Assembly (NCBI GenBank): GCA_008632985.1 | Contig: QPGO01000129.1 | Span: 186,001-239,427 of the forward strand | Origin: Psammoneis japonica | Lineage: Eukaryota | Length of the DNA: 53,427 bases | Direction of reading: 5' to 3' | Shown here: positions 3,801 to 41,226 of the stretch, piece by piece | How the letters are laid out: each line of letters opens with the position of its first letter | Numbering within the stretch: position 1 is the first letter of the stretch | Program-made: the position numbers and the translations under genes | The notes under the pieces: model-generated | What the model was told of the DNA's origin: nothing | Seen by the model: the letters and a program-made list of their open reading frames with translations, nothing else | Databases searched by the model: none

Positions 3801-6488
3801 CCCCACGTCTCCACTGGCGCACGCCCCTCGAGACTCTCACTGGCTCCACCCCGGACATCAGCCCGTTGCTTCGCTTTCATTGGTGGGAACCCGTGCACTT
3901 CCACCTCTTGTGACTCCGATTGGCCGTCCGAATCCCGTGAGTTGCGTGGACGCTTCGTTGGCATTGCTGAGCACGTCGGCCACCAGATGACCTTCAAGAT
4001 TCTATCTGAAGAGACTCAGAAGATCCTCTGCCGGTCCAACGTCCGCTCCGCTGCCCCCGATCCTGTCGTTCGAAACCTGCGTCTTGATCCTCCTGATGGG
4101 GAGCCACCTGAACCCATCATCAAATCTCGCCATGACGACAACCCCGTCGACTCTCCTGATGGGGAGATCAGGACACCCAAGATGCCAGTTTTCGATCCGC
4201 AAGACATCATTGGACGTGCCTTCCTCATGCAGCCACAAGAGGACGGACAACGCCACAGAGCTCGCATCGTCAAGGCCGTCGAAGACCACGAATGGAAAGT
4301 GAATGGCAATCCCGAGCTCACTAAGTTCGTCTGCTCTGTCAACAATGACGAATGCGAGGAAGTCCTTGCCTGCAATGACATCATGAATCACATTGAGCAA
4401 GAAGACGAAGATGCCACTGTTTGGAAATTTCGACGCATCGTGTCGCACGAAGGACCTCTGAAGCCTCACGACCCAACCTGGAAAGGCTCCAGCTACAACA
4501 TCATGCTTGAATGGGAAAGTGGGGAGATCACGTCCGAGCCTCTTGCCATCATCGCCAAGGACGACCCCGTCACCTGTGCCATCCATGCACGAGAGAACGG
4601 ACTCCTCGACACGGATGGCTGGAAGCGGTTCCGCACCATCGCGAGGCGCCAAAAGAAGCTGTTTCGCATGGCCAACCAAGCCAAGCTTCGCTCCTTCCGC
4701 ACTGCACCTCGCTACAAGCATGGACACGAAGTTCCCCGGAACTACAAACACGCCATGTCACTAGACGAACGCAACGGCAACCGCAAGTGGGGAGACGCAA
4801 CTAATCTCGAGATGGACCAACTCGACGAATACAAAGTCTTCCATGACTGCGGGCCCTTCAAGTCTTCCACTCCTCCTGCGGGACACAAGAAGATCCAGTG
4901 CACCCAGGACGACGTGAAACACGACGGTCGCCACAAGGCACGACTCGTAGCCGACGGGCACCTCACGGACGTGCCTGTTGACAGTGTCTGCTCCGGAGCA
5001 GTCTCCCTCCGTGGCCTTCGGCTGATGATTTTCCTGGCCGAACTCAACGAGTTGGAGACATGGGCCACCGACATTGGCAATGCCCACCTTGAAGCCACCA
5101 CCAAGGAGAAGCTTTACATTGTAGCTGGACCCGAGTTCGGCAAACTCGAAGGACACATCCTTGTCATCCACAAGGCACTGCATGGACTGCGCAGCTCCGG
5201 TCTCCGCTGGCACGAGCGCTTCGCCGACTGCCTGCGAGCTGAAGGCTTCTTCCCCTGCCGCGCCGAACCCGACATTTGGATGCGCAGGAACGGCGACCAC
5301 TGTGAATGCATTGCCGTTTGTGTGGATGACCTCGCCATTGCCATGAAGGACCCTCAATCTTTCGTCGACACTCTCACGGAAAATCACAAGTTCAAGCTCA
5401 AGGGCGGGACCCATTGAGTTCCATCTGGGTTGCGACTTTTCCCGGGAACCCGACGGAACCTTGTGCCTGTCTCCGCGCAAGTACATCGAGCGCATGGTCG
5501 ACAGCTGTGCCCGACTGTTTGGGGAGAAACCTGCCACCAACGCCCTGTCACCTCTAGAGAAGGGTGACCACCCCGAACTGGACACTTCCGAACTGCTGGG
5601 ACCCGATGGCATTCACAAGTTCCAGTCTCTTGTTGGTTCACTCCAATGGGCAGTGTCCCTTGGTCGAATTGACATTACCACGGCTGTCATGTCACTCTCT
5701 AGCTTCCGAGCTGCGCCCGTCAAGGCCACTTGGACCGTGCCAAACGCGTCTGTGGGTGCCTCTCCGAAATGCGACACGGTGCTCTCCACGTTCGCACGGA
5801 AGAGCCCGGCTGTTCGGATCTCCCTGCTCCGGCCTGTGAATGGATGCATTCCGTGTATGGTGAAGCAGAAGAGATGATCCTGAAGGACGCTCCACCGCCC
5901 CTTGGCAAGTTCGTCACTGCCACCCACTACGTCGATGCAAACTTGTGCCATTGCATGCTCACCGGACGCTCTGTCATGGGAATGCTCCACTTCCTCAACA
6001 AATTCCCGGCTGATTGGTTCTCTAAGAAACAAGCCACCGTGGAGACTGCGACCTGCGGGTCTGAATTTGTTGCCGCAAGGACTTGTGTTGAGCAGATTGT
6101 CGACCTGCGCATCACCCTGCGCCACCTTGGCGTCCCGATCCGTAACGTTAGTTACATGTTCGGTGACAACAAGTCGGTTGTAGACAGTGCCACCATCCCA
6201 CACTCCAAGTTACACAAGCGACACACCGCACTGTCGTTCCACCGTGTGCGTGAGGCAATTGCCTCTGGTTGCCTTGAGTTCCACTTCATCGAAGGCTCCC
6301 GCAACCCTGCTGACATTCTCAGCAAGCATTGCGGTTGCTCCCAAATCTGGGACCTTCTCCGCCCCCTCATGTTCTGGAACTTCATTCCATCCGAAGTCGA
6401 ATCTGTTTCTGTGGCTCCTCAAGCAAACTGGGGAGTGACAGGATTTGAACAGGATTTAGGTGCGCGCGAAGTGTCGTGCGCTGTTTAG
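824..6488 (+). mobile_element. Ty1/Copia (CoDi-type) LTR retrotransposon gag-pol, decayed
   Basis: Order gag (FKRGIKRD...)-protease-like (VDRGANGG)-integrase (TDTV/SDRAQ/NFAE)-RT (KARLVADG, DIGNA[H]L, KAL[H]GLRSSG, V[C]VDD)-RNase H (WFSKKQATVET, GDNKSV, NPADILSK). ATG at 824. Frameshifts near 3905, 5410 and 5718. Confidence 0.95.
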
Positions 6489-6701: not shown

Positions 6702-6797
6702 TTTCCTGTCATCCAGCAAATTAGCAGGTGCCTGCACAGTCACCTGAGTGCAGAAAGTCAGCAAATTTACACAAATTTAGCAAGTTATTTTGTGCTG

Positions 6798-7991
6798 TCA
6801 CAGTCGCCTGAGAATGGTCTCTTCCTCTAGAGAAAGGGGGACTGAATTGTCATTCTTGCCCACTGCAGCACTCTTCAGGCAGAGAGACACGCAGAAGAAC
6901 TCGTCGTTTGAGTTTGTCCTGCTGGAGATGCAGCGGCACTTGGTGGGGTTAAAAATGATGACATCACCAAGCCAGAGTGCAACGGAGATGCCTTCGGTGG
7001 GGAAGCAGAAGTGCGCCACAATCCCGTCATTCATGGTGTGGCTGCCGGACGGAGGGACTCCCACCATGGTGACTGCTGACAGGAAGAAGTCCTGGTCCCG
7101 ATGGGCGTTGAGGAAGACATTGCACCCAGCCGCCAGAGAGGAGAAAATGCCATCTGACCGCACCAGGGATTTCCAGTTGTGAAACTTTTTGACACGAGCG
7201 ATGCCCTCAAGGATGGCACAGTCCACGCACTCATTGACAAGGTGCTCCATGCGTGAAAGAAGTCTGGTGAGGTGGTGAGTGTGTTGGTCGGCCATGCCAG
7301 GCTGCTTGCAAGAAATTCGAGCGTCTCTCGTGGCAGCCAGGCCAATCGTGGAATGCTTGCTCCTGTCCATCTCCATGAAGGTAACGCGTTGTTTGCTGCG
7401 CACGGTGGACTGGGCGGTGCAGCATTCTAGTGCTTTGAGCGCTCGGTGCTGAGCAACTAGTTCTGCTGGGTTGGGGGAGCTGAACACCACAGCAGAGCAC
7501 GGCAGCAGGGTGCAGGTGTTGTCGCAGCGGCAACCGTCCAAGCCAAAGAAAGGCTTCAGATCGAGCACAGGGTCACAGATGACCAGAGGAGCCAATTCGG
7601 CAAAGTCAATGTCAGCAAGACAACGTGGTGCAGGCTGAGTGTAGTCGCCGTTGCAAACTAGAGTGCGGTTGGCTACGCAGTGCATGGAGAGACTCTCAGT
7701 GGCGCACGGTGCAAGTGGAACGAGGCGAGCAATCTTGGATGTTTTCCTGCTGGCGCGGCTGCGGATTCGCCTGCGGCTGCGGCGGGCCTTGCGAAGTGGC
7801 GGTTGAGCCCTCAACACGTTCTCACACATCCTGGTGCGCATTGACGATGCGGTGTTCGCAGAGAACGTGTGTGCGAACTTGCCGGTGAATGTTCCGCTGC
7901 TTGACACTGTCACTGTCGTCTTGGCAGTGCCCAAAGCAGAGCTCTGTCGACAGGGACCGGCGGACTCCAGGGGAGTGGGGTCAAAACCCAA
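6798..7991 (-). pseudogene. TET/JBP-like 2-oxoglutarate/Fe(II) dioxygenase domain, mutated
   Basis: IFSSLAAG[C]NVFLNAHRDQDF (HxD at 7095-7103), FCFPTEGISVALxxGDVIIFNP, K[CR]C where YHC is expected, and CVSL[C]LK. Motif order and spacing match the TET/JBP double-stranded beta-helix core. Confidence 0.6.
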
Positions 7992-8093
7992 TCAAGAGAT
8001 GTGTCTGCTTTCCGTTGCCTCAAGAGCACCCAAAGCAAAACTCTGTTGACAGGGACCGGCGGACTCCAGGGGAGTGGGGTCAAAACCCAATCG
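7932..8093. repeat. Tandem duplication with 99-bp period and ~62-bp near-identical core
   Basis: CAAAGCA.A.CTCTGT.GACAGGGACCGGCGGACTCCAGGGGAGTGGGGTCAAAACCCAATC starts at 7932 and again at 8031. Confidence 0.9.
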
Positions 8094-8678
8094 CGAGAAG
8101 TGTTTGCTTGTTGTCAGGCTGCGAGCTGCACGTCCCAAACCCCCACACTGTCGAGACCGGCTGCAACTCGATCGCGACAAGTGCTTGTCGTTGGTGGGAT
8201 GACGCAGCGAGGCACGAGGCAGTTGCGACATGGTGTGTCTCAATTTGAAATGTGTTTCAAAGTGCAACGACGGAAGTGTTGTCGCGTTGTTTTTGTCTCC
8301 GCGGAGGGAGGATCATCCCACGGCAATCTCAGTGCGAGTTCTCGCGTGGAAGTGCATCACGTGCCATGCCAGCTTGTGCGTTTGAATTGCACGGATGTGC
8401 AAGTGCGGCAACGATGAGAAGCAGGCCGAGATTCAAAACAAATTTTATCGCCTGAAGGCGTCTTGTTGTTTCAACGCGTCTGCATGTCTGTTTAAAATGA
8501 CTTCATGCATCGATCCACACGCAGGTAGAGGCAGCACGCCGCGTTTGAAAATTTCGCGCGCATGGAGGGCGCGATGGTAATTTTGCACATTCTGCGCACG
8601 TCACAGTTTGGTTTGGAAACGCAACGTCTGGTCGAACCCGCTGCAAGCAAGGTTGATGTTGCCACAAGGTTGGATGCG

Positions 8679-9540
8679 ATGAACCATCATTGCAGAAGTG
8701 TCAGGGAGTTTCATCTTCAAACGGCTCCGGACTCCACGTTCCAGAGCAGGCGTGTCTCCGGAGACGGAAGCGGATCTTCGCACGGCGGCGAAGTTGGCTT
8801 CGCTTTGAGCAGCGAAGTGTTTTTGAACAAACGGCGTGAATCACACCTGCGATGCATCTGTCGACATGGGCAGGGGAGTTGCCGGACCCAGCATCGGGCT
8901 CAAGTTACTTCGTCGCCGTTGCACCGTGGTGAGCATCGAGGCCGACCACGATCGTCACCAAGAGGCTGCATGTTGGGCTCATCGTGCTGGCCTTCGCTCG
9001 AACGGCGGGTTGGAGTTAATCAACAAGTCATTCTTGGACGAGAGGCTGGCTCCTTTGTGGAAAAAGAAAGGACTCAAGGTGTTCTTCAACAACTGCAACT
9101 CCCGCATGGTCGACGACAAGAACACACAGCAGAAGGCAGAGGCGATGCTTTCGAAGTTGTGTCGTGCTGGGACCGTGGTGGTGGCGCTAGATCCGCTGTT
9201 CGCGTCGCACGCGGGAGAGTGGATGTGCGAGTCCTTCACGGCGGATCACCATGATGGCGACTTTTTGTGGCACAGCGGAGACGTGAAACATCTCGTCTTC
9301 CACAAGCACACCAAGAAAGAGGAGACTTCTCAGTCAACCAGCCAGCACATGCGACGTCCCACTCCGACACACTTGGAATGGAAGTGTTTGCCCGTCGCGA
9401 AACAGCCAATTTTACTTAAGAACTCAACTGAACTGTTTTTTCACTGTCACTGTGCCAGATGTCACACGCTAGTTGCTCTGCTCAATTCGCCATTGCTTCG
9501 CGGTGACAACAAGTTGTCGTCGGAGATGGTGCATGCTTGA
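8679..9540 (+). pseudogene. DOT1-like class I SAM-dependent methyltransferase, frameshifted
   Basis: S[H]GGEV (YGE-like), then after a frameshift near 8830: VDMGRGVA (motif I), VVSIEAD (motif II), ELINKSFLD, VFFNN (DOT1 FVNN signature) and GTVVVALDPLF (compare PGxRIVSLKP). Confidence 0.6.
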
Positions 9541-9631
9541 AGAGACAGAGGAAAGCTGAGTTGTGATCGACACTTGGTTTGCTGAACATTTGCAAATTTG
9601 CACTGCACCGGCAAAAAAAAAAAAAAACAAC

Positions 9632-10501
9632 TCAGTCTTCGTCGCTGTCCTGAAGCACCAAGTCGTCATCGACGTTCAGGTCAACTTCGCAGTTGAGCTT
9701 GACATCATCGTCGGCCTCTTCTCCAGCTTCTTCTGCCGGAGCTCCAATGAGACGACAGAGTTCCACAGGCAACGACCCCTCGTAGAAGCAACTGTGAAGC
9801 AAGTTCTTGTTTTGGGTGCACCAACCGATGTGAAACTGACCACCTTCCTTCTGAAGCTCGGCAAGCGCCGCCTCGTTGCTGATCACTTCGGACCAAACAG
9901 CATCCTTCATCCAGAAGAAGTCGTCTTCAATGAAGACCTCGGTGTTGTTCTCAGGGTCATCGTTGAGCTGCTTCGCAATGTGCTTCCCGAGGCCGCGCAC
10001 TTTAGCATCGGTTGGGACTTCTTCGAGGAAGATGAAGAAGAGATGCACGGCGCAGTTCTTGGCGTTCGTCTGCAACTCGCCTTCGTGAACCCACCTGCCA
10101 GCGCAAGGGTGGAATCTGACTTGAACCGCCCACGGAGTCCTGATGCGAAGGTCATCAAACAGAACCTTCTCCAACCAAACATTGGCCAAAAGGGGATTCT
10201 TGGCTTGGAGACGAAAAACAACGCCTTTCTTGCGGCCGACAGTGACGGTGGTGCAGCGCAGGAGGGCGTCCTCATCGGAATGGCTGCCATCATCAGAACC
10301 GGCGGATTTGGAAAGCTTGAACCCGTGCTTGGCAAGGCAGTCTTCCGGTTCAAGGTCGTCGTCGGTCAAGCCGTTGGTCTTGCGGGGCGGACTTAGTTTC
10401 TTCAACAGAGCATCAGAAAACTTTGTCTTTGCCTTCTTCTGTTTGGTTTCGGCGACTTTGGCTTTCGCAGCCGGGGAGGTCGTTGTGTTTCTTTTGCATG
10501 C
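9632..10501 (-). CDS. Unknown transposon-associated protein with Lys-rich N-terminus and acidic C-terminus
   Basis: Protein-like frame (MA[C]KRNTTTSPAAKAK...DDDLVLQDSDED) with the same TpA depletion as its neighbours. No family recognised. Confidence 0.45.
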   Translation of the reverse strand, partial: ACKRNTTTSPAAKAKVAETKQKKAKTKFSDALLKKLSPPRKTNGLTDDDLEPEDCLAKHGFKLSKSAGSDDGSHSDEDALLRCTTVTVGRKKGVVFRLQAKNPLLANVWLEKVLFDDLRIRTPWAVQVRFHPCAGRWVHEGELQTNAKNCAVHLFFIFLEEVPTDAKVRGLGKHIAKQLNDDPENNTEVFIEDDFFWMKDAVWSEVISNEAALAELQKEGGQFHIGWCTQNKNLLHSCFYEGSLPVELCRLIGAPAEEAGEEADDDVKLNCEVDLNVDDDLVLQDSDED

Positions 10502-11038
10502 CATTGAATCAGTTGGAGAGAAATTGTGGGAACAAAAAGTGCGATCGTCCAGAAGTGCCAAGAAAGACCCAGTGGAGCTGCGTGCGTCATGCCAAGGAGA
10601 ACTGGCAACGTCAGCAACTAGATCCAAACACGTCGAACTGCAACAAGGTGACCTTCCAGGTGTCAGCACTTGCAAGTGGTGCATGGATTCAATTTGAACA
10701 AAACAGATGCAAGGATCGGAGCACGCAAAGTTGCACTGAGTTTGCTGAAAATGCACAAAATCACATGCAGTTCCGTCCGTGCTTTGTGTGCATTTCAGCC
10801 ATTGCCGCCGCGCGGCCATCGCGCGCGAAATCTAGTCGCCAAACGGTCGACGCCATCGCTGTCACTGCTGTGCCGGCAGTTAGCTGAGGTGGGCCCATCA
10901 CCCATTTGGAGGATTCGCGCGCACTTTGGAAACACGAATGACATCAATCGCACCGTCATTGCCACATGACTGCCCCGCCACTCGTTGAAGCGTGATTCTA
11001 CGGAATTTGCGCAAAGCTGCGCCCGCCACCAAGATTGC

Positions 11039-11145
11039 CGAAACAACTTGAACAAGATCCGAATCTTGCCCCATGGAATGTTCAGAGCAGATGGTCGAAA
11101 CAACTTGAACAAGATCCAAATCTTGTCCCATGGGATGTTCAACAT
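11039..11145. repeat. 57-bp tandem duplication
   Basis: CGAAACAACTTGAACAAGATCC starts at 11039 and 11096. Confidence 0.85.
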
Positions 11146-11296
11146 CGACGAAACTAAGTGGGATGTCGTGTGTCTGGTGCGAAGAAGGACGTGGGAGGAA
11201 CGCACACGTCACTCTTCTGTCGAGGTGAAAGAGGCACACTATCGTCTCACTTTTTTGTGACAGAACCTTTGCGCAAAGGGAGACGAAAAGCATCCA

Positions 11297-11990
11297 ACTG
11301 CGGTGATTGGGCCACACCGATTGCAGTTCTCAGTTCTCACAGTGACCTGGCAATGCAGGTTGTGAGACAACGCACAAGCTCAGCTGCAGTGACTGGACGA
11401 CACCAGTCGCAGCTCTCACAGAGACCTGATCGCACAGGTTGTGAGAACATGACACAACGCTGTGGTGATTGGATGGCACCGACGCAGTTCGTCAAGCAAC
11501 CAATTCACTTGGCTGCGGTGACTGGACAACACCAGTCGCAGCTCTCACAGCAACCTGATTGCACAGGTTGTGAGTGAACAACACAGCGCTGCACCTCGTA
11601 ACGCAGGTTGTGAGATGACGCACAAGCTCAGCTGCAGTGACTGGACGACACCAGTCGCAGCTCTCACAGAGACCTGATCGCACAGGTTGTGAGAACACGA
11701 CACAACGCTGCGGTGATCGGGCAGCACCGACGCAGTTGGTCAAGCAACTGATTGACTCGGCTGCAGTGACTGGACAGCACCAGTCGCAGTGCTCACAGCG
11801 ACCTGATTGCACAGGTTGTGAGAAGATGACACAGCGCTGCGGTGAGCGGACAGCACCGACGCGGTTCGTTGATCAACTGGACAGAACCACTGCAGTGACT
11901 GGACGACACCAGTCGCAGTGCCACAGGTGGTGAGAAAACACACATCGCTGTGGTGATTGGACAGCACCGATTGCAGCTTCACGGTGATCG
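11297..11990 (+). repeat. ~5 copies of a 129-bp tandem repeat upstream of the Helitron Rep
   Basis: GC[A/G]GTGACTGGAC..CACCAGTCGCAG recurs at 11386, 11515, 11634, 11763 and 11892 (spacings 129, 119, 129, 129). Confidence 0.9.
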
Positions 11991-12063
11991 CACTGAAAAA
12001 ACAACTGTTTTTGCTGAGCAACTTCTTGAAATTTGTTGAGTTGGAGCACCAGCTCAAATTAAG

Positions 12064-15000
12064 ATGGACGAGGCCAACTCCCGTTTTTGCAACGCAATCA
12101 ACAGAAAGTTTGAGATGCTCCACCTGCATGGAGACGGAGAATTTAGACCACACGCATGTTCAGTCTGTGATGTTCTGCTGAAACCCAGAGAAGTTTGCTG
12201 CTTGCCGCTTGAAACATTGGAATCAGCAAGAAACTCACTCACCCCTTCAGACTGGAACAGCGTGTCTGATCGTCTCAAGTCCTGCCACACTGTAGAGCAT
12301 GAAGATGCTGATTGGATCAAAGACCCGCCACTTTCTCCCCGCGCCCAATGCGCAGTGCAGGAAGACAGACGACACGTTGATGGATTCACTTGCTGCAGCG
12401 AATGCCGAAGAAGCCTGAGAAGAGCCGTCATGCCAATGCATGCGATGGCGAACAACTGCTGTTTCTGCACCCCGCCGCGTGAACTGTTGTCTCTGACCAA
12501 AGCAGAGTTGGCAATGCTCACACCAGTGAAAACATGCGGGTGCTGCTTCAGTTGCCTTGGCGGCAAACAGAAGAAGCTTCAGGGAAGTCTGACATGCTGC
12601 AAAGTCAAGATGCAAAGCATCGTAAGAACTGTTGTGCACTTCGACGTGCTGAATTTGCATCAGAATGTGATTGCACTGATGACTGGAAAGATGACTCCGG
12701 AGCAAAGACAACTTGCACGTTCAAAGAACAGAATTAGGACGCACTGCATGCCAAGGGCGATGGAATGGCTGTTGCACCACAACCAAGAGTGGGTGCACCA
12801 ACAGACAAATCTAGACGAAGTCAGGTGCAATCTGCGGAATCCCGCACTTGTCGACAGCACCAGCGAAGAAGAAGGAGAAAATGCAAACATTGAGACCTCA
12901 GAGTCATTTCACATTTGCTTTCCTGATGGAACCATGTCTCCTGCGACCGGTGGTCAGCGCAACCTGGACTGCTTCAAAGATCTTGTGCACGAAGCCACTG
13001 CCAACGGATTTGATTTAGAGGCACAAGCACAGTTGTCCAAAGAATCTGCGAGTGATTTCAAAGGCAACAACTTCATTGACGCGTGTCTGCTGCAGTTTCC
13101 TTTTGGCAGAGGAGGAATCAATGAGACGAGAATGAAGAAAGACAGAAGTCTCACAGATGGCACCAACCTTGCACACTGTGCCGACCACTCAGCACGGATT
13201 TCCCAGCCTCACTTCCATGAGCAGCTCTTCGTGTTAACATGCCACAACTTGACAATGAAGCAAAGGATGCTGCAGAGCGCAGGGTGGAAAGTCAGGGACA
13301 AGAATCAGGCTGCACAGTTTGCAAACGAACTGACAGTGGACGATGTGGACAGAGCTGTTTGTGATCGCAACTTGGGCGAGAGAAGAGATTGTGGACTCGG
13401 GCACCACTTTTTGCATGCACTCGACGTTGCATCTGCGTCTCTGCCACACAGTGACGAAGCAGCAAAGAAAATGAGGAGAAACGCCAAAACTCACCAGCAT
13501 CATTTTGGTCAGGGTGGCATTTTCTTAACCGTCAGTCCGGACGATGCAAATTCGTTTCTTGTGCAACTGCACTCGGGTGTCATCCTGGACCCAAACGAAG
13601 ACGTGACACAACTGACGGACGAAATTCTTGCCAGCAGGGCCAAGCAACGCAATGAACTGCGTCTAAAGTTTCCCGGTCTAACAGCCTTTGCATTTGAGTG
13701 CTTGTTTGACATTGCAATGGAAGAGGCAGTGGGTCAGGATCTGAGTGCCAACCAACCAAGAGAAAACTTTAACTTCTGCATTGGCAGGCCAGCCACATTT
13801 TTAGCCGCAGTTGAGGAGCAGGGACGTCCAACAGTGCATGGACACATGCAGATCTGGTTTGCATCGATCAACAATGCAAGAGAGAAACTGCACTCGCCAA
13901 TGAGACAGATCCGACACGAAGGTGCTGAGTGCCTTGCCAACATGGTTCAGAAGATCTGCAGCACGGAGTTAATCTGCAGCGAGGACTTCAGCACTGACGC
14001 GTTGCGTGAAGCATTTGATCATGACTGCACAGTGCCAAAAATGCACCGCACCTCTCCAAAAGCAGTGGACGACCAACAGCTAAGAAACCTGAGGCATGAA
14101 GATGGCCAGCAGTCAAAGAACGGAATGTTTGCTTGTTGTCGTCACTGCACCAAGCACTGGACAAACGTCGAGTTTGTAGAAAGCTTTTTGCAGTCACGGC
14201 ACTGTGTGCCTGGCCTGACTCGCTGTTGAGACAACCATGCAAAGCGACTGAAAGCAATGTGTGTGCAATGCCAGCGAAGTGGTCCGCAAGGGACAACAGA
14301 GGCACACATGCCGGATGCAGCTTACAACCATCACATGCACGTTACGAAGTCGTGTTTTCCCAAATGCGCAGAGTTGCGTAAAATGCGTAAAAAAACCCCA
14401 CACGAGGAACTGGACACGCAGTCAAGGAAAAGGAAACGAGAGGAGCTCAAACTGGGTGACTGCCGTCACAGGCAACCAGCTGCTTTGTGTCCAAACAACT
14501 TGGCAAGGAATGCAGATGACACTCAGATAAAGTGGTTCAGCTGGGATGGAACTTTTGCGCATCGGTGCGTGAAGGAAGTTGTTCCAAAGAGGAGAAAGCA
14601 CGATGCTTTTCAAAACGTGTCGTGCCCTGCAACAAGCAGATCAAAGCTGACATGCAACACAAACATTGCTTTGTTGATGCCTGGACCGTCTGCTCAATGC
14701 ACGACCAAGTGCATCCCAAAAGATGCCCAGAAAGATGACACTGCATCGTACGACGAAGTGCTTCGAACTGCGAACAGGATGGCGACGGAATTGTGGAAAC
14801 ACACATCTGATGCATCGGAAGCAATCAGACGTCTCACATGGGGTGCTCACTCGCATGACAAGACGAACGTCATTGGACCACCACTTGCGTCTTGCACAAC
14901 AAGGAACGGAAGCCGTTTCATCGAATCTCATTTGACCGCATGGTGCCCCTTGAAAGACATTGTCAGCACACTAGAAAGAGACGAAGTGTCTGTGACTGCA

Positions 15001-17795
15001 GCCCATTTTGGCGATGCACTGTTCTTCCAATGCCAGGCCTTGCACCACCTGTGTCGTCCAACAGCACTGGAGAATCTCAGTCCGTTTGCGTTTTTTAGTG
15101 AGTGCGAAGTTCTTCACAACACAAGGAAAAACGAACACGGCATGATGATGTTCGACAACAGAGCGCACAGGCACCCGTCTCACAATTCAACAAAGAATGA
15201 GTTTCTTCAAGGTGTCAGACAGTGACAGCAACCGCGATTGTCAAAAGCACTTCAGTGTGATTTTCCTGATGCAGCCAAGTTTGGCAGTTGCCTCATGGAT
15301 CCGCAGCAACCAACAACACCAGACAAAGAATTGTGCTGCAAGTTGGCATTGGCCTTGTTCGCGCCTTACAGAACAATGACGGAACTCAAACCAATGACCC
15401 ACGCACACCTGCGTGAATTCCAACTCTCCGCAGTGGCCGGTGTCATTGCAGAGGAAATCTTGAACTTCTTGCAGAACCTGCAGGATGCCAAGTCCAACTG
15501 CCTTCGTCTCAAAAGTGCATCTGACGATCTGCAAAGAAAGACGGAGCAATTTAGACCTGCTGACGTTGCGTTTGACTGTTGCAAAAGTGACGAGGAAGAA
15601 GGTCTTTCAGGCGCCGTTCAGGGTCAACCACTGGATGCACTCTTGGAAGAAATGGCAGAGCAGCCAGAAGACGATGACATTGGGTTGAGCGACCAAGCAG
15701 TCATTCCTGCGCATTTGAGCGGCAAACGTGCAAGACAGAAAGGTCCACACATGGGTGGTTGCAAATGCTTGGCAGACGTGCACACTGACCCACCAAACGA
15801 GGAAAGCCAGGTCAATGAACGACAACTTTTTGAGAATCTAGAGGGTGGCGATGACACCGACGAGGAAGACCAGAATGAAGGAGTGCAACAACACATCCAC
15901 AGCAGACCACTGTCAAGAGACAACATTGTTCGAGTGACACTGACTAGAACGCAAAGAACAAGAAGGTCGTTTGAGGACATGACAGGTTTGGAAGAACACG
16001 TCGATGTGCGTCAAGCAAACGGATCTGCAGCAAGCATCGTAGACTGGGCTGGGAAAGCAAGACTGGACAGGCAACAGCAGCGTGCCTTTGAAATTCTAGC
16101 AGGAACCTTTGTGCTCACTTGCTGCCAAGACACTCTTCAAGACGAGACGTCACACAATGGACTCAACAGGAGAAACAGCAGACACGAGTTTGCAACAAAC
16201 CTTCGCCGATTGAAGAAACTCGTGGAAGTGCAAAGACGCAGAACGTTGCAACTTGTGTGTTTTTTACATGGTGCAGGTGGAAGTGGCAAATCAACCACAG
16301 TGGACCTCGTCGTGGAATGCGGAAGAGAGCATTGCTCGCTTGTTGAGCAGCCGTTCACAACAAGCACAATCAGAGTGACTGCACTGACCGGAGTGGCTGC
16401 GACCATTCTCAAAGGGGACACAATCCACCGAGTTGCATGCCTCATGAGAAGAAAGCAAATGACCGAAGAGCAAATTGAAGCATGGTCAGACACGAGACTT
16501 TTGGTGGCAGACGAGATTTCTTTTGCAAGCAAGAGAGAACTAGAAAAACTCCATGAGAATTTGACAGCATTGAAGAGCGAATTGAGCAAGCCACACGGTG
16601 GTGTCAACATTGTTTTCGCAGGTGACCTCAGGCAACTAGAACCAGTCGGAAAAGGAGTGAAACCACTGCACAAAGATGCATGTCCCGAGTTTCACGAGTG
16701 GATCAACTGCCACATGGAACTTCGTGGTGCACACAGGTTTAAAGACGATCCATCATGGGGAAAACTGCTCAAGAGATTCCACACTGGTGAGATCACAGTT
16801 GATGACACAGAGTGCATCAACGAACGAGCAGCTCAGAACGAAGATGATCTGCCCAGTGACCTCCGCTGTGCCACGTGCGCAAATGAGGACAGAGATGCAA
16901 TTGACACTGGCCATTCGAAAAAAGAGCAGAAACACTGCATGGAAGAGATGGAGACGTCCTTGACTCAATGTTGATTTTCAGTGACGACTTGCAGGTGCAG
17001 AATGGCACGAGACTCTGCCAACCATTTCCGGTTTGCAACAGCTTCTGGAACAACTGTGGTGAAGGAGACATTGTCATGCAATCAGGAAGAATGGATCCAG
17101 TCTTACGAATTTACAGAAGATGCAGAGTCATGACACCTTTCAACGAAAATGCAGCAAATGGTCAAGCAAATGGAACGCAAGCCACTGTTGACAAGGTCGT
17201 TCTCAAACCAGGACAGGAACCAAGACTGGTGACTTTAGACAACAACATTGGCATTCCTGCTGTGCTTGCCAGTCAGGTAGACCACGTTGTGTTGGAACAC
17301 TGCAACAAAAGCATCGACCCCGCGAAGTTTTTAGTTGAGCCAAAAACAAATGCTTTCAGGGCTTGCATCGCCAAGCCCAGCCTAATTTTAGAAGAAGGCG
17401 ATGAACAAAGGCACACTTTCCAACTGAAGGCAACCCAGCTGCCGTTTGTCATCAACAATGCCGCTGCAGGGCACAAACTGCAAGGGAGTGGAGTCCCGCA
17501 GTTGTCTGTGCACTCTTGGAGCTACACTCAGAATTGGGTGCATGTTGTGCTCTCCAGAGCAAAGACCAGAGAAGGGCTGTTCATGCGAAAGCCACCAAGC
17601 AAGGACCTGCGAAAATGCAAGGTCCCAGAAGGCTGCAAAGCCTTGACAAGACTCATGAAGGAGAGAAGCGCCACGCATTTTTCTCAGCAACAGTGCGCAG
17701 AAATGTCAATGCAGTGCGCAAACATTGGATTAGGATGCTCAACCACTGTGCAACTGTTTGGCGACCCCAACCGTAAAAATGCAGAAATTTCGTAA
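12064..17795 (+). mobile_element. Helitron Rep/helicase (RepHel), decayed
   Basis: HUH Rep motifs FLTVSPDD, VEEQGRPTVHGHMQIW and Q[C]TTK[C]IPK (YxxKY). PIF1 helicase motifs HGAGGSGKST, VADEISF, FAGDLRQLEPV, HRFKDD, ANGTQ, HKLQG and VVLSR. Split into four ORF pieces by stops and frameshifts. Confidence 0.93.
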
Positions 17796-17809
17796 AGTGA
17801 AAATGTCGA

Positions 17810-18271
17810 ATGGATTTTAACCAACAAACCAAGAAACGCGAACGCAGCCGTCACAGAAAACGCAGCAATGGAGAAAACATGGATTTGCAACAACAAACAA
17901 AGAAGGCAGACGAGCCAAAGAAAACTGGTGAGGACAAGAAAAAGGTGCAGACATGTGCGGAACTTCTTCAGTCATTGATGAACAAGGAAGACGAAGAGGA
18001 GATCACCTTGGAAGAAGCAAGAGCGGCGTTTGACCTTGCCTCGGGAAATTTTGATGTCACTTCTGCACTTGTGCAAGACAACATGACAGCGGACAGTCAT
18101 CATGTGGAAACAATGGTCACGCCCAAGGATGATTCAACCATGGAGGAGCTAAAGGCAGCATGTGCAGCGGCGATTCCACAGCGGTCGGGGAGATTTTTCA
18201 CCGAGGAGGAGATGGCGGAGCAGGAGAAGGAGCAAGCAAAGTCCCTTCAGAAGAAGCATGGCCAGAAATGA
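17810..18271 (+). CDS. Small charged protein with a UBA-like motif
   Basis: ITLEEARAAFDLASGNFDVTSALV resembles UBA helices 2-3. It lies directly downstream of RepHel. Confidence 0.4.
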   Translation: MDFNQQTKKRERSRHRKRSNGENMDLQQQTKKADEPKKTGEDKKKVQTCAELLQSLMNKEDEEEITLEEARAAFDLASGNFDVTSALVQDNMTADSHHVETMVTPKDDSTMEELKAACAAAIPQRSGRFFTEEEMAEQEKEQAKSLQKKHGQK

Positions 18272-18899
18272 TGGAATTGAGCAAATTGCAAATGACCATT
18301 TGGCAAAGACAACCGCATCAATGCGCAAAATGCACACACATGGACTTTCGCTCAAGCCGCCGCGGATTGAGTGTGGCCACAAATGAGGACCAGCTGTCTG
18401 GCAAAGAAACTGCAACAATGCGTAAATTTCGCACATTTCCACACTCACTCAATCCAACGCAGCTTGCCTTGGACAACATCAACATGCACAACTGGACAAC
18501 ATCAATGTGCACAGCCTCATGAAACCTCACAGAAGACAGAACAGTCAGAAGCAAAACAACCAGCACCGCGCACTGACGCATGTTGGTCATGTCACGTGGG
18601 TCGCGCAAAAGTGCGCACCGAAATGACCATTGTGTGTTGCAATCAATTCGAACGCCCGGCGCAAAATGCAGCAAAATGATTGGTGCAGGCAATCATCATG
18701 GCTCCATTTTCTGACAGTGGCGAGGGCAGCAATCCAAAATCTTTCGGTTTCAGACTTCGATCTAGAGAGTTCCACCTAAAAGAGGAGGAACCAATTGATG
18801 CTGAACAGGTTTTTTGTGCTGGTTTGCTCTGCAAAAGTCTAAAATTGGAGGCAAGGCCATGGAGCTCTGCAGATTTGAGCACAAAACAAAGAATTTTGA

Positions 18900-21800
18900 A
18901 TGTCAAGTCCTGAGTGTCTTTGCAAAGAGGGCTTTGCCGGCATGGAAATGCAATCATTTCACACAGCTGAGCACTTCTTGACAGATTTCAACAGGCTTGC
19001 AGCTTGCAACCAGGGTGGGGCATTGCTGCTTGGCTGAAGGTCTGAACTCTGTGGCAGCGCAGGATGTCTCTGGCACAGGAAGATCCTGGGAGGAAAACGC
19101 CAATGCAAAGAGCTTGGTGTTTGCCTTTTTGTGCTGATCAGGAGTTCTGCAAGAAGCAAGACAGACCTTGCCTTTGAGGCTCTTAAAGTTGTGGCTGAAG
19201 CTCCTGCTTTAAACCCCAGTGGGGGAGCCAGAAATGCTGCTTTGCAAAGCAACAGCAGCCAAGCCAGCATTGTGTGAAAAAAAATTTTTGGAGAAAAGCA
19301 CTTGATTTTGGAAATGGGAATGTTCCCATCATTTTTCACACCGCTGTTTTGCCAGTCAACTTGCTGCTCAAACTGTGCATTTTGCATGTGGGGCTGTGCT
19401 TTTAATTTTCTGTTGTCAATCAATTTGCCCAGCACTGCACAAAACAAACATGCCTCCTGTGGGAATGAATGAGGGGGACCAACCAAAATCAAAACCTGCA
19501 CTGCCAGACATTTTGACAAGAAACGTTGAGAATGTCATCCAGAAGCAGCAGAGATGCACTGAGCATGAGCTTGAATTTTTTGCACCTGTGCTTTGAAATT
19601 TTTCTGTGAAATGCTGGTGTTCAGAGTTGGGCATCATGCATGTTTTGCTTGAGGAAAGAAAACAACTCAGCCAGCCAGCTTCAACACCTGTGCATCAGGA
19701 CATTTCACAGCTGGTGCACAATGCTGCCTTCAACAAAAACCATGACAAGATGCAAGATGACAACAATGTTTTTTCCAACATGTTTTGCAAGTGTGTGGAT
19801 GCCTCACAAAACCCCAAAACAACTTGTGATCCAATCAGGTGGACAATGAAAACAAAAGCAAAGTTTGCTTGCATGCTGAAGAAGTTGCTTTCTTTTGTTT
19901 GTGTGAAAGTGCAAAACAGTGTTGGCAAAAACTTCTGGCAATGTCATGTTGCAAAACAGCAACACGCTGCAGTCTGCTCACAACAACGCACACTTTTCAA
20001 CATGCTCCCTCTCAACAAATGAGGCACTCACTCAAAATCTGGCACAAACCCTCCTGACAATGGTCGCAGACTGTGTGCACAGTTGTTGGCATCACTCCCA
20101 TGTGGGGGGTGCACCCAGCTGCAGCTGCACATGGAACCACAGTGTGTGCTCTCTCCACGTCACATGCTGAATGGCTGCATTTGCCGCCGGCTGGCACAAG
20201 TCATGTTGAGCAGGCTGTGTTTGTCAAATGTGCCGCTTGTCAACCAATGATTTTGAGGGTCAGTTGTTTCCTCCTGCATCACCAAAATTCTGGCTGATCA
20301 ACCTTGCTGCCACCCAGCAAATGTCATGATGCAAAAACGACTGTGTGAAGAGAAACTCGTCACTCTGCCACGTTCCTCTAAGATGCAGAGACCCTCTCAC
20401 ATCACATGTGCAGCATGCATGCAGACAAAAGGTTGTTTTTGTCACGCCCTTTGTGACATTCAAAGGCTGCAACACGTCGCCGTGATGCACCAACTCTTGT
20501 TGGCAGCTGCATGTTGCACTCCTCCCCATGTGTCACGCGTCCATGCGGCTCTTTGCTGATGTGTGCTGACACTGCACGGTTTTGGTGGAACAGTGTGGGC
20601 ACGTGCGAAGGAACATGCAGTTCTGCACAGAGTTTTTGCGCGTTGGACAGTGATCAACGTTGCTGCAGACAACTCCCACTCAGGGTTTCGAACCCCTGGC
20701 CTCCTGCCTGATGGTTGCGATGAACCACTCCGCCATGAATTCATGATGCAGCATGCATGCAGACAAAAGGCCATTTTTGTCACGCCCTTTGTGACATTTA
20801 AAGGCTGTGCTGAACCATGCTTGCCTGACATCAGCTGGTCACCACCGTGCTGGCAGCAGTTTTCTCATTGGCAACAAATGGGTGGTGCACGTCAAGCTGC
20901 AAACAAGTGCCAATTTTGGCACAGTTTTCATTCATCAGAGTGAGCTCAAACTGGAGCGGCTGCAAAAAATCCGGGTGGTGCATGACTTTGCAAGGACGGT
21001 TCTCCAAATTGTGCGCAACAACTTTTTGCACAATCCATCAGATGATCAGCCGCAGCCCAAAGCTTCCACTGAAACAAGCAATGCCCCCTTCTGGAGCAGG
21101 CAAAAAGAGGGCACAAGAGGGGCACAGATGTGCATGGTGCACTTTGCAACAAGCACACATGGGTCATGCTCTCAATCCCCAGCCATCATGCCAACAAGCG
21201 AGCCAAGACAACATGCTTTGATCTGCACGCTGTGAAGTGCTCACATTGAGAGCCAAGACAAGCTTTGAGCAATGCTTCCAATTTGAGCACAGAGGAGCTT
21301 GATGTGTGCGTGCGCGAAGCAACAAGCACACTGCACAGCTCGCAGCAGATTGTTTGAGAGAGCAAAAGCAAAGCGCACCTGCTCAACCAGAAACAGCTCT
21401 GCAGTTTTTGTCTTGACAGCGATTTTGCAAGCAACTGTCTTTGCACACTCAACAATGCTGAGCTTTGTTTGCAACGGGGGGCAAGAACTTGCGGCTTTGT
21501 TGCTCGGCTTGATTTTGAGACCTGTGCTCCAATGACAAGCGTGGCTTCCTCTGCTTGAATGCTGCCCAGATGACCGCACACTGTGCAGAGCAGACCACTG
21601 GAATGTGGGCATTTTGATGCTGTTCCAGAGCAGCACAGCTGACAGCCATGCATGCTGTCTGTGCACTCTCTTCCTGAGCACTGGTCTGTGCCATGCTCCG
21701 CAACGAGATGCTGTGCTCAGCCAAGTCATGTGCCACAAGCTCGTGTGTGACAGTCATGATCACCAGCTGCACAGTTCTGTGGAAATTGTGCACACAGCAA

Positions 21801-22150
21801 GAGCCATGCGCCACAGCTCTTGTCCAAAGTGCAGGGCAGCAAGCAATTTTGTGAGCTTGCTCGGGGTCTTTTTTCTTGTTCTTTTTGCTCGCCCCCCCCC
21901 CCCCCCCCACATGAAGAAGGCCAGCAGAAAATGGCGCAGGAAGCTTGGGGCAGCAGCTTCACAGCACCACTCTTTCTGCTGCACCCAGTTTGCTCCAAGT
22001 CACTTGCTTGGCACTTGTCTGACTCTCTGAGTCTGTCCATCCCGCCAAACAGAGTCGCTGACACCTGCCTGCCTGCTGCACCGGTGTGACCTCTGCGTCT
22101 GACACACCTTTTTTCTGTTCGCTTGTCTTTGTCATTCAATCACATCACAC
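18900..22150. mobile_element. Highly degenerate repeat-derived DNA (TpA- and partly CpG-depleted)
   Basis: Extreme TG/CA richness, very few TA, no recognisable protein, internal direct repeat at 20411 and 20749. Confidence 0.55.
20674..20737 (-). other. tRNA-derived Pol III promoter (SINE head or tRNA pseudogene)
   Basis: Minus strand reads TGGCGGAGTGG (A box, 20725-20735) and GGTTCGAAACC (B box, 20684-20694) with D- and T-arm-like pairing. The anticodon arm looks truncated. Confidence 0.55.
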
Positions 22151-22589
22151 ACGACTTGACTACTCCCTCTGTGCTGTCAACAAGTTGAACCCCCGGATGG
22201 GTAAAATTTCCGCCTCCAGATGGTGCCACAGTGTTTGCTACTTTGTATTTGCTGCGCACCGCCATTCGCGAACCTGTCACCGGGTGCTATTTTTAAGCAC
22301 CCCTGCAACATGAATGTGGTCAACGAGTTCTCCGGAAAATAAGCGAACCCTCCCCTCGCTCACAACTCACAACACAGAATTGTTTCATTACTGTTGAAGT
22401 GATCAGCAGTAGTTTTTCTTTGATCATCCTTTGCAGTTCGTAAGTTGCTTGCTGTTGAAAATGTTGACTGCGTTTGCTTCTCTATCAGAAACTCAGGAAT
22501 GTACGAATTGTGTTATTTCTGATAAAAGCTCGCCAGAACGATCTCACTTCTGCTTTCTTATTGGTTGTTGGCCAGAACTGACCTTTGTG

Positions 22590-23243
22590 ATGAAGTTTTC
22601 ACCTTTTTCTCTCGCGCTTTCACTCGCCCTCATCATCACCAGCATCAATGGCGCACTCGCCCAAGACGATGGCGTTGGCGCCTCTACGGCGGTGGGCTAC
22701 CTCGTTTCCAAAATTAGCGAGAAACAGGATTGGTGTCTCACTGCTGTCAAGAAGACACGTGACTACGGAAACCTCGGCATTACCCATTGCAGGTTTTCCG
22801 CCTTAACCGATGATCAAAAGTGGCAGCTTTTCGACAATGGTACGATCCACAGCGGCATCAACTATGCTGGTGACGCCTCGGACCGCTGCATGGTCGTTGG
22901 TTACCAGAGTAGGTTTCGCAAAGGCATTCGATTGCGTCTCGGTCCGAAAGGTTCGTGTGGATCCGGTAAATTGAACCAGTTCACCACGGATGGAGGCCTC
23001 CTCAGCCTCACCGAGGGCTTTATCAGGCTCAAGGATAACGATGAATTCTGTGTCACCAACCGCAGTAAGATTCCCCACGAGGGCGACATTATGCATGCCA
23101 AGGCGTGCTGGATGAGGGATGACTTCTTCTGGACATTCAGGCCAGAGTTTGAAGCGGTGCCACTGGGACCACCGCCAGTGAGTGTAGTCGTGTCGACACC
23201 GGTACCATCGCAAGAGGAGAGTGGGGTGTCGCCATCAGGATAA
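22590..23243 (+). CDS. Secreted ricin-B/beta-trefoil lectin-like protein
   Basis: Signal peptide MKFSPFSLALSLALII..., repeated xCL/xCM/xCV strands with QKW/FFW (QxW-like) motifs, Pro/Ser-rich tail, normal TpA content. Confidence 0.7.
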   Translation: MKFSPFSLALSLALIITSINGALAQDDGVGASTAVGYLVSKISEKQDWCLTAVKKTRDYGNLGITHCRFSALTDDQKWQLFDNGTIHSGINYAGDASDRCMVVGYQSRFRKGIRLRLGPKGSCGSGKLNQFTTDGGLLSLTEGFIRLKDNDEFCVTNRSKIPHEGDIMHAKACWMRDDFFWTFRPEFEAVPLGPPPVSVVVSTPVPSQEESGVSPSG

Positions 23244-23552
23244 TTACTCCTGTGTCTATATCATCCTGTCGTCGACATTGTAGCGTTCTCGTTTCATTAT
23301 TCACAGCAGTCCATTACAACTGCATATCAAGTTTCATAATTTGTTGGTTCAGAGTTCTGTATATGAATCAAGATACTAAGGCCTTACGAATAAGAGATAT
23401 CGTGTCTCCAGCTTTTACTTACTCTACCTTCGTTTTGTTTCATGATTTTCCCGATTCATATGTGCTGTAGTAGAGATACGAAAGCCGGCGGAAAACACAC
23501 TATAGCTAGAATCATTGTCTCTCTGTCTCTCTACTCATAGTAGTCTCTTACT

Positions 23553-25541
23553 CTATCTTGTCTTGTCATGACCGTGTGGCGTCTTTTTGCGCCGCAAGGA
23601 CTTGACCCTTTGAACAAACTTATCTTTGAGAATGCGAAGTTTGTGCTTGGGTGGTGGCTTGTTGTGAAAAGCTCGAGAAACGCGCTCGGATGACTTACGC
23701 AGCAAAAGATTCAGAATCGTCCCCAATATAAAAGCGTACAAAGTGCAAGTCAAGCTGATGGCATTGAATGGCATACTCATGTCAGGAACAGGAGGCATAA
23801 GCAGCAATGGTCCGTTTGAGTACAAGGTATATGGCCGAGCGGACGGCTTACATTCCCTGCCATCTGTTCCAGCTGAAGCTGCTTCCATAATTACTGCGTG
23901 AGACGGAGGCATTTCAATTCCTCGATTGGGGTCACCCGGGAATTCTTCAAATGACAAGAGCTTGGGGTTGTAGTCAAGTGAAGCCGTTACACGTGAATTC
24001 GGTGGTAGAATCATGTCAAGCTTGACAACAGCAGTTCCGGTTTGGTAGAATGACACGTCGTGATGAACCATCCAACCAACATCCTGTTGGATGGCGGACC
24101 ACACCGACACAGTTTCATCCCTTGCTACATTACCAAAACGGTGTACAACCTGGAATGATTTCCACGAGGGAAGCACAAAGTCGGGTACGATAATCGTAAG
24201 GTTGAAAGCAGTAGATGCAATCTGGCAGTCGTAGTCTTGGTCGGCAGAATGATGAACCTCCGTGATTAGAGTGCCGGTGTTGGAAATCCCTCGTGGCCGT
24301 AGAATTGTTTGGGACAAGCTCCAGCCGTTGTTTGATGAAAGTTGTTGTTCCCGTTCATTAAAGGATGAGGTGATTGGAATCATGAAGTGATCAAATGGAT
24401 CGCTGTCGCTGAGTGGAACAACTTTCCAAGAGTTTGGATTCGGAACCGACTCGCCCATACTTACTATTCTCGTGGATTCGGCAATTGGGCAAGACTTAAA
24501 TTCGATTCTTTGCTGTTGGCTATCCTCTGGAATAAGGCGAGAAAGCGGTATAGATTTGTATAATGCCGCCCTCTCGAGTGTCACACCGTACTGGATTCCC
24601 CGATGCACGTAATGATGAACCGGTGATGTTGAGTCTTCAACGCCAGAGGACTTCAAGTCTATCCATGTAGATCTTGGTACGAGCGAGCTTATCGTTGATG
24701 GGGACGCCCCCAGCAACAGATTCGACATGGAGCTTATAGACATGATGGAGCCCAAGACCCCGGTATTAAAACAACTTTGCGGCGTCAGCGCCGTTTGGAA
24801 TGAGCTCACGCCTTCTGCCGACATGGGACCAATTTCTGTCGGCAAAACTACGCTTGCTTTCCAAATATTAGCGACTTTATTATCTTCTCTCCTTTCAACA
24901 TGGATCCATCGATGTATTCGAGAAGATTCAACTGAATCAAGTGATGCTAAAACGATGCGTCTGTCGGCCAAGTGAGATAGCAGCGAGGTGAATTGGATTC
25001 TCACTTGATCTTCCGAGTGGTCCTCGTCAAGAACAAACCAAGCCATAATAGCAAGACCCGATGGACTTGAATATGGTGAGTTGATATAGCCATAAGGCTG
25101 TTGATAGCATGATGAGTCTTCCCACGAATCAGGGCCGTTGTTGCGTTGATAAGCATCTAACGACGAAGATGTTGAAGATGAAGATGTTTGAATCAAGATA
25201 CGAGACGCCTGGAACCGTTTCAACACTTCTTTTACCGCAGATGGGAACGGCGTTGCCATTGTAATATTATCCTTTCCATTAGAAACTAGGGAAGCTGCAC
25301 GTGTTTCCAGTCTCACTCGAAACGTTGACCAGTGTCTGTCTTCTGTATCCGCAGAAACAACAGATCCTCTCGTAGTGCTCCATACCGGGGACACCACTAC
25401 TCGTTCCTGATAAGAAAACGGGACAGATTTGTCGCACAACGTCATTATGAAGAGAAGAAGATTAGAGGATAGGTACAGTCAATATAGTGTAATGTAAGTC
25501 AGGAACAGCTTTGCTCGTTTCTGCGGCGTCGTTGGCTGCAT
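23553..25541 (-). CDS. PIGT: GPI transamidase component PIG-T/Gpi16
   Basis: EEFPGDPNRG and PVPDMSMPFNAISLTCT followed by a TM helix and basic tail, typical of the Gpi16 C-terminus. The 5' end is uncertain (in-frame TGA at 25479-25481). Confidence 0.8.
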
Positions 25542-25930
25542 CATTGTGAGCTTCGAGATTCCATGTTTTGCTCCATCGAGTTTGCTCACGCGAGCGGCAC
25601 GCCGCACAGACGACTACACTGTAGTGGTTTTGGCCCATTTAGGCCATTCAAGAAGCCCTCATAACCGGTTTGATCATGGTCCCCTCATTTTTTTCTTCGC
25701 GATCTTGCGCCATCACATCTTTCTCAAATTCAACCCTGCTTGTTCAAAGTGATTGATGAGACGCCGTTCCACAGAGAGTAGATAGCTCTTAGCACAGCCT
25801 CATCTATACACTCCCATTTGATTCAAACAATAAGAATATTGTCAACAGAAAAATGAGAAATCACCACAGAATCAAGAAGCAGCACGTTTCAGCTACAAAG
25901 AAAATTACTCATCGCAACAGCAGCCTGACC

Positions 25931-31737: not shown

Positions 31738-32000
31738 GTTTCCGCTGAGAAACAGCTGTTCTTTCATGGTCAACTCGCACTCGTCGCACCGTGTCGTCGA
31801 GGGACTGCTAATAGGAAATGAACAAACATCATCCTTGTGGTCAAGGTGCTGCCAACAAGGAACAAACTGCGAACCATGTTGTGAAGCAACTGCTACTTTA
31901 GGAACAAGCAGCGCTAGTCGCCAACACTAGGGCTTAAATGGACTTCTTAACGCTTCACAGATGCATCAATACTATATTTACTTAGTTACATAATGACTGC

Positions 32001-38058: not shown

Positions 38059-38160
38059 TTGAGTTCGTCATGGTTTTGCCTTTACAAACATCCAATTTTG
38101 AACAAAAAACTCCTCGCAATTGATCTCGAATGACACTTTCACCTTTTCTTCATTGGGAAA

Positions 38161-41100: not shown

Positions 41101-41226
41101 GACTCAAGCGGACCCAAAGTTTGCTTGCGACTCCGTCGCATGGGATCATGCTGCAACTCATTCTGGCTGTGGATGACTGCCTTGCTGCGAGAGTCTTTCT
41201 TCTTGCTGGATGATTTCCGCTTCATT
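38161..41226 (-). mobile_element. IS630/Tc1-mariner-like DDE transposase, decayed
   Basis: FGQDE, FELDHSSGH and TPK[C]HPE...VE[C]AWG[C]AK (PKYH...IEYxWG motif). Upstream pieces 39944-40954 and 40911-41226 are joined by frameshifts. Confidence 0.8.

Follow-up and report, generated by a model that had tools for sequence, protein, structure and literature searches.

The known mutational genome defences, namely repeat-induced point mutation (RIP), APOBEC and the decay of methylated cytosine, turn C into T. A system acting in the A:T>G:C direction has been seen once before, without its enzyme: in the chlorarachniophyte Bigelowiella natans, integrated giant-virus and virophage DNA is hypermutated at TpA (bioRxiv 10.64898/2026.01.13.699255). 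According to the main text of that preprint, the changes are almost exclusively A:T>G:C, occur on both strands, are confined to foreign or silent DNA and come from an unknown enzyme; the process was live in 231 new mutations, its activity in culture is episodic and line-specific, and the long-term depletion is mild (rho 0.45). Here we describe the loss of TpA in the diatom Psammoneis japonica, in a window of 53,427 nucleotides (assembly GCA_008632985.1, contig QPGO01000129.1, positions 186,001 to 239,427). The window holds a copy of a Helitron (6711..18796, + strand) with a dead RepHel gene (12064..17714, +). As in B. natans, the changes that we observe are almost only A:T>G:C transitions at TpA, fall on both strands and are restricted to regions that are foreign or silent. 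Here, however, the targets are transposons, 71-86% of the source TA sites are lost per copy, the rate on each strand follows a six-base rule, and off-target changes run at about 1%. The main text of the preprint gives no flank rule (the terms context, flanking and trinucleotide are absent); its figure logo and supplements may hold flank information (bioRxiv 10.64898/2026.01.13.699255).

RIP of Neurospora, which is premeiotic and depends on RID/DNMT4, is likewise a transition hypermutation at the YpA step (Y, pyrimidine; R, purine) that kills repeats, and DNMT4-like genes are present in P. japonica. It runs in the opposite direction, however, since it changes C:G>T:A at CpA, and CA>TA amounts to only 0.17% here. 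Moreover, RIP clusters are 91.9% single-strand (PMC7296669), whereas strand choice at our locus is independent from site to site, and a block for which no full-length second copy was found (38100-41900) has been struck as well. Adenine base editors (ABEs) derived from TadA convert A to G on DNA, best at TAY (PMC10879117); we observe the same T at -1 and pyrimidine at +1 of the A, and the poor ABE motifs CAG, AAG, CAA and AAA have some of the lowest off-target rates here. ABEs are, however, engineered and guided, act on single strands and show only a mild 5' preference (PMC10085711), whereas here TA is favoured about 100-fold and the bases at -2 and -3 count. Like our locus, with its 5' order T>>A>C,G, both animal ADAR and the editing of mRNA by fungal Tad2-Tad3 strongly favour U/T at -1 and A next, but their substrates are RNA, and at +1 they favour A/G (Fusarium) or G (ADAR), as opposed to T/C (PMC4817773). 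With a purine at +1, TAA and TAG are slow contexts here.

Surviving TpA sites in the Helitron copy

The Helitron copy measures about 12.1 kb and lacks the first ~1.9 kb of a ~14-kb element: copies elsewhere match it from 6711 to 18794-18799, and other copies run ~1.9 kb further 5'. RepHel carries Helitron_like_N, DUF6570 and PIF1 domains, with Rep and PIF1 helicase domains in one frame as in Helitrons, and is broken by two premature TGA codons (14227, 15223) and, near 16912, by a gap of one base. An original prediction, made from the letters of 12064-17795, had counted about 44 TA by eye, about 26 of them YTAR, with no TAT, one ATA and one GTAC. The counts proved exact: there are 44 TA and no TAT, 26 survivors are YTAR (TTAG 10, CTAG 7, TTAA 5, CTAA 4), and the others are TTAC (6), GTAA (5), GTAG (4), CTAC (1), ATAA (1) and GTAC (1). 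Taking as null the flanks of every TA, TG and CA step in the stretch tested, YTAR is in excess (26 observed versus 10.4 expected, p=6e-7) and ATA/TAT deficient (1 versus 16.4, p=5e-8). The host genes at 22500-37900, in contrast, have 306 ATA/TAT versus 293 expected and too few YTAR (107 versus 152).

A search of the organism's own 91-Mb assembly gave 43 matches from the 40 of 52 candidates that were scored, and 38 stretches were taken. The alignment of 12000-18790 comprised 39 rows, of which 35 were kept after removing one duplicate and three diverged or short rows; the rate fits used 32 rows (two non-independent rows and one outlier removed) and the off-target and spectrum analyses 31. We called a source TA where the copies split between TG and CA without CG, and a source CpG where CG stood in at least 30% of rows, obtaining 352 source TA and 339 source CG sites. 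Source states are hence set by threshold, rates at fast sites are saturated and represent lower bounds, and flanks shift as neighbours mutate. The rates were all estimated on a single transposon family, and four rows probably contain assembly joins in their last few hundred bases. The inferred source has a TA observed/expected ratio (o/e) of 0.72 and 67 Tyr, versus 10 in the plain majority sequence, and its RepHel is a single open frame of 1,883 codons ending at TAG 17712, which provides a check on the source inference.

Copies have kept 14.5-28.8% of the source TA sites, and the window copy, at 14.5%, is the most TpA-erased of the 35 rows. Where the source had 293 TA in 12064-17795, this copy now has 126 TG, 121 CA, 44 intact TA, 1 CG and 1 gap; still TA are 1/104 of the ATA/TAT sites, 1/40 GTAC, 16/84 of the TTAC/CTAC type and 26/64 YTAR. 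Some sites are fully resistant: the TA at 13802..13803 (TTTTAGCC) is intact in all rows covering it, as are those at 12144, 13770, 14177, 15839, 16637, 17236 and 17389. The source stop codon (17712-17714) reads TAG in 15 of the 35 rows, CAG in 12 and TGG in 4, being gapped in 1 and uncovered in 3. With TAG erased to CAG or TGG in 16 rows, the mutator thus extends reading frames; it also replaces Tyr with Cys or His. The window copy has lost this stop too and for that reason reads on to 17795, beyond the end of the source frame.

Apart from a few pairs, the copies mutated independently (mean residual correlation -0.03). One pair that split late has TA in one copy only at 18 sites, opposite outcomes at 5 and 36 CpG differences, with 51 TA intact in both, so the process went on after that duplication. 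Since the life cycle of Helitrons has no reverse-transcription step, the changes arose in DNA. Five Helitron copies (L117-L121, at the ends of contigs C31, C32, C113 and C194 and internal in C41) share one unmutated 3.6-kb 3' flank, and four of the contigs stop at the same base. We did not use this flank as proof that repetition alone goes untargeted: the copies merge over the last 150-500 bases, a probable assembly join.

Sequence context of TpA loss

Survival was scored by strand-merged class over 517 sites, i.e., 14,958 site-copy observations. It rises from 0% at ATAT (0/531) through ATAC/GTAT (2.6%), ATAG/CTAT (6.2%), GTAC (8.8%, 167/1,900) and ATAA/TTAT (10%) to the slower contexts CTAC/GTAG (22%), GTAA/TTAC (35%), CTAA/TTAG (43%), TTAA (50%) and CTAG (60%). 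These ten classes account for 29% of the site-to-site variance in survival, against a maximum of 9.5% in 10,000 permutations, so that the NTAN contexts are not equally depleted. YTAR survives at 48% and the remaining contexts at 15%. The original prediction had named TAY/RTA as the preferred target and YTAR as relatively refractory, and its ranking stands, with ATA/TAT the best target, TAC/GTA next and YTAR relatively spared. It was incomplete, however, in that the second flanking base matters about as much and each strand's rate is affected by both sides of TA. Survival is 0.4% for RRTAYY, 27% for RYTARY, 45% for YRTARR, 48% for RYTARR and 70.5% for YYTARR.

We fitted competing risks to 335 non-overlapping sites and expressed base effects as folds relative to T for the strand whose T becomes C, with intervals from a site bootstrap; conditioning on undetected sites changed nothing. 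The folds at -1 are 5.0 for A (3.7-6.9), 4.1 for G (3.4-5.7) and 1.3 for C, and those at -2 are 2.7 for G, 2.0 for A and 1.6 for C. On the 3' side, we obtained 0.35 for A, 0.42 for C and 0.38 for G at +2, and 0.41 for A, 0.53 for G and 0.81 for C at +3. The rate on each strand depends on six bases, 5'-R-R-[T]-A-T-Y-3' written for the T strand and 5'-R-A-T-[A]-Y-Y-3' for the A strand. A TAC speeds one strand and a TAT both, and thus ATA/TAT vanish first; a TA persists only where neither strand is a good target, which leaves YTAR and, above all, YYTARR. Cross-validated negative log-likelihoods were 10,558 for the null, 9,470-9,702 with the 5' side only, 9,169-9,600 with symmetric effects only and 8,752-8,610 with both sides free, and purely one-sided or purely symmetric models were rejected for their worse fit. 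The -2/+3 effect is largely symmetric, as would be expected if the sequence or shape of the duplex were read. Site survival is bimodal, with 188 of the 352 sites lacking any survivor and 34 at least 90% intact. The list of survivors had hinted that an adjacent CpG protects; the half-site fit places this within the +3 effect, and a comparison of intact with decayed neighbours gave no clear answer.

Nearly all changes at source TA are single transitions (7,841 of 7,898 changed observations are TG or CA, 35 are CG and 22 other), and we rejected a spectrum of the ultraviolet or polymerase-eta type on the rarity of transversions. Outside TA, T>C reaches 0.83%, versus 0.25% for non-CpG C>T and 0.04-0.09% for transversions. 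This off-target T>C obeys the -1 rule as well (folds of 5.3 for A, 4.1 for G and 0.7 for C; 566 events), at about 1% of the TA rate; median strand hazards are 0.35-2.0 at TA versus 0.002-0.022 at AA-type sites, making TA ~100-fold hotter. It peaks at the first T of RTTA (3.7-3.8%), i.e., adjoining a TA target. The 5' purine rule is absent from CpG decay and non-CpG C>T (CpG flank folds 0.7-1.4; 1,365 events), and one enzyme for both CpG decay and TpA loss was rejected on this ground. The simplest reading is that TA loss and off-target T>C are one chemistry, distinct from methyl-C decay. Exposure per copy correlates with CpG loss (rho 0.68, 32 rows) and with off-target T>C (0.58) and does not track other changes; its correlation with CpG loss fits either age or methylation-linked targeting. 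Residual survival shows no nucleosome-like positional pattern (r at most 0.07).

Replication across and beyond the window

Sites in the 5' part of the Helitron (6716..11299, +; segments 6716-10100 and 10200-11299), where 155 of 166 source TA were used, were held out from the fit. The fitted rates correlated with their survival (rho -0.59, 155 sites) and with the choice between TG and CA (0.75, 131 sites), and a refit on these sites alone gave -1 folds of 4.7 for A and 4.2 for G, with a weaker -2 effect.

Within the window, blocks with a TA o/e of 0.03-0.19 alternate with genes at 0.52-0.60. We expressed how well the rule ranks surviving TA as an area under the curve (AUC). It does so in the erased blocks at 18800..22100 (o/e 0.03; 6 survivors, AUC 0.98), 38100..41900 (o/e 0.08; AUC 0.82) and 46300..53427 (o/e 0.03; 14 survivors, AUC 0.83), and more weakly in the relic of a Copia-type retrotransposon at 1500..6400 (+; RVT_2; o/e 0.19, AUC 0.70), where a simple YTAR count is not significant (12 versus 9.1 expected). 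The host genes served as controls: those for Gpi16, cyclin and glutamate synthase (22500..37900) are untouched (o/e 0.60, AUC 0.475), and a sulfotransferase gene (42600..46000) has o/e 0.52 and AUC 0.44. Elsewhere in the genome, the AUC is 0.74 for three TA-poor methyltransferase loci, 0.75 for 14 TA-poor flanks and 0.44-0.49 for genes. The block at 38100-41900 has no full-length second copy that we could find in the genome; 38200-40900 gave only 3 short partial matches, and further copies may have been lost or missed. Ten distinct copies have normal DNA on their flanks. There, the 100 bases just outside the element have a TA o/e of 0.73 and its last 300 bases one of 0.38: the targeting keeps to the element and weakens towards the end of it.

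The Helitron also carries cargo. A passenger frame at 6801..7991 (-), open in the inferred source, is present in most copies, at the same loci as the RepHel copies; it has no match in Pfam, NCBIfam or the PDB, and its fold model is unusable (pLDDT 35.5). A second frame inside the element, at 9635-10831 (-), is likewise without a Pfam or NCBIfam match. Degenerate tandem repeats occupy 11345-11970. At the 3' end (18770-18796), a short hairpin precedes CCAAT(T), where canonical Helitrons have CTRR. As for the other blocks, 38100-41900 carries two long frames (38161-39954 and 39944-40978) of no known family, and the last block contains a ~400-base repeat in three copies (48351-48751, 49788-50183, 52187-52582) and a tandem array (53083-53423). 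At the edge of the gene block, 22413-23240 (+) weakly matches a ricin-type lectin domain, below the curated cut-off (E 2e-4).

Possible mechanisms

After insertion, each chromosomal copy was hit repeatedly at TpA, at individual sites on one strand or the other, and A:T was turned into G:C. A converted site is no longer a target, and the same chemistry appears to leak onto other A:T pairs at ~1% of the rate. The process is probably recruited to silent, CpG-methylated chromatin. The original prediction had taken flank specificity as a sign of an enzyme instead of composition drift. Our results agree that the process is targeted, but flank specificity alone proves no enzyme, since chemical and replication processes have flank effects too; the case for an enzyme comes from the ~100-fold selectivity for TpA, the purity of transitions and the confinement to silent blocks. 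Our best guess for the mutator, to which we give slightly less than an even chance, is a targeted, distributive DNA adenine deaminase. A zinc-dependent enzyme of the TadA/ADAT fold would turn the A of T-A-Y out of the helix, in duplex or transiently opened DNA, and deaminate it to inosine, which would be copied as G. In its favour are the TAY preference of TadA-derived editors on DNA (PMC10879117), the likeness of the 5' order to fungal and ADAR editing (PMC4817773) and the presence of TadA-like and ADAT2-like genes in the genome.

Several points weigh against such a deaminase. A processive single-strand deaminase would tend to leave a transcription-strand bias and strand-coordinated clusters; we found neither the former (fold 0.95, 0.85-1.05) nor the latter (concordance r -0.004 to 0.005 at six distance ranges), although many rounds could dilute the cluster signal. 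Even the richer model accounts for only about half of the variance between sites (R2 0.51 on the training data). A genome search for deaminases gave 9 matches from 11 candidates, among them genes of the TadA-like (contig C38), ADAT2-like (C26), dCMP-deaminase, RibD and nucleobase-deaminase types, but these look like ordinary housekeeping genes that organisms without such a mutator also have, and none is tied to it. The best-known activity of a eukaryotic Tad2/3 outside tRNA prefers a purine at +1 (UAG, UAA), the opposite of the rule here (PMC4817773). Finally, in the sequence an attack on A looks the same as one on T. In the course of the gene search we also noted one open frame on contig C79 (L063:313-1785, -) that joins a guanine-deaminase-like domain to a 2-oxoglutarate oxygenase, the best solved relatives of which include thymine dioxygenase; it probably acts in nucleobase salvage.

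If T is the target, a TET/JBP-type oxidation or a base-flipping enzyme resembling RID/DNMT4 would act in silent chromatin on R-R-[T]-A-T-Y and leave a modified base that is copied as C. We consider this rather unlikely, although all measured rates are equally consistent with it. A methyltransferase-domain search of the genome (27 matches from 29 candidates) found several genes with motifs that we take to be RID/DNMT4-like, at least three of them in open frames, in addition to TpA-erased copies. They include L106, L107 and L113 (contigs C10, C59 and C34) and L110-L112 and L116 (C301 and C297); in one of these ENV reads EMV, in another PCQ reads PCD, and some are multi-copy and lie within TpA-erased DNA. 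DNMT5 is a further candidate. In the boldest form, which we regard as very doubtful, an enzyme of the RID/DNMT4 type would run RIP in reverse on thymine at the same YpA step. We know of no thymine-to-cytosine chemistry for either TET/JBP or RID/DNMT4-like enzymes. A TET-like enzyme can act on thymine (PMC12344493), but our genome search for Tet_JBP was empty, with its control also silent. Moreover, TG, the closest mimic of methyl-CG, is altered at only ~0.6%, CpG decay has a different and weak flank rule, and a 3' purine disfavours ionised G-T pairing (PMC13315743). The function of diatom DNMT4 is described as not known, and among MMETSP species DNMT4 is reported only from diatoms, which would leave B. 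natans unexplained (PMC9998398).

Error-prone synthesis is unlikely. A TpA-directed nick or base excision would be filled by a Y-family polymerase placing G opposite T, or replication errors would escape mismatch repair in heterochromatin. On the A strand, the 5' order (T>>A>C,G) is like the polymerase eta WA motif, T>C is elevated off target, and neighbouring sites within 15 bases slightly co-survive (r 0.20, n=553). Against it, TA is ~100-fold hotter than AA-type sites, transversions at TA number 22 among 7,898 changes, non-CpG C>T does not increase with exposure, and patch repair would be expected to spread errors more widely.

The original prediction had also drawn, as speculation, a link to ApT and N6-methyladenine (6mA), by which methylation at ApT would mark sites and lead to A>G. 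ATAT is indeed the hottest class, with no observation intact, and a T after TA specifically raises the rate ~2.6-fold. Yet ApT, which 6mA of the AMT1 type requires, is dispensable here: at the 5' side G nearly equals A, GTAC is 91% erased, and off-target GTT (1.5%) is close to ATT (2.2%). In published data, transposons show no enrichment of 6mA and methylated genes retain their ApT, and Phaeodactylum tricornutum is reported to have only 5-methylcytosine (10.1101/2024.10.28.620566); our genome search for MT-A70 gave 0 candidates, with its control also silent. We therefore consider this link highly improbable. Composition drift, stop-codon avoidance or protein selection, with which the survivor counts of one copy alone would be compatible, is refuted by the source TA o/e of 0.72, the equality of synonymous and non-synonymous outcomes (1.00, 0.87-1.23), the absence of the rule in genes and the sparing of precisely the stop-like contexts TAA/TAG. 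The remaining weight goes to a chemistry that we have not foreseen.

Implications

The literature searched, to which most subscription journals did not belong, yielded no account of TpA being erased in diatom repeats, nor of such a flank rule. We give an even chance to the view that P. japonica has a natural genome editor dedicated to turning A:T into G:C in silenced DNA. It would read about six bases on both sides of TpA in the duplex, act distributively and differ from every characterised deaminase and RIP enzyme; it may also operate in B. natans. The polarised per-strand rate table is a fingerprint for it: a candidate must show R-A-T-[A]-Y-Y, ~100-fold selectivity for TpA, no strand clusters and a 1% leak with the same +1 rule. 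The table argues against ApT methylation, RIP-like processivity and a Tad2/3 preference like that of Fusarium. Developers of editing tools would also be interested in an adenine editor from nature that works on duplex DNA. Applied to the 231 B. natans mutations, the table can be used to ask whether one enzyme acts in both algae; if so, TpA erasure would be a cross-lineage eukaryotic defence.

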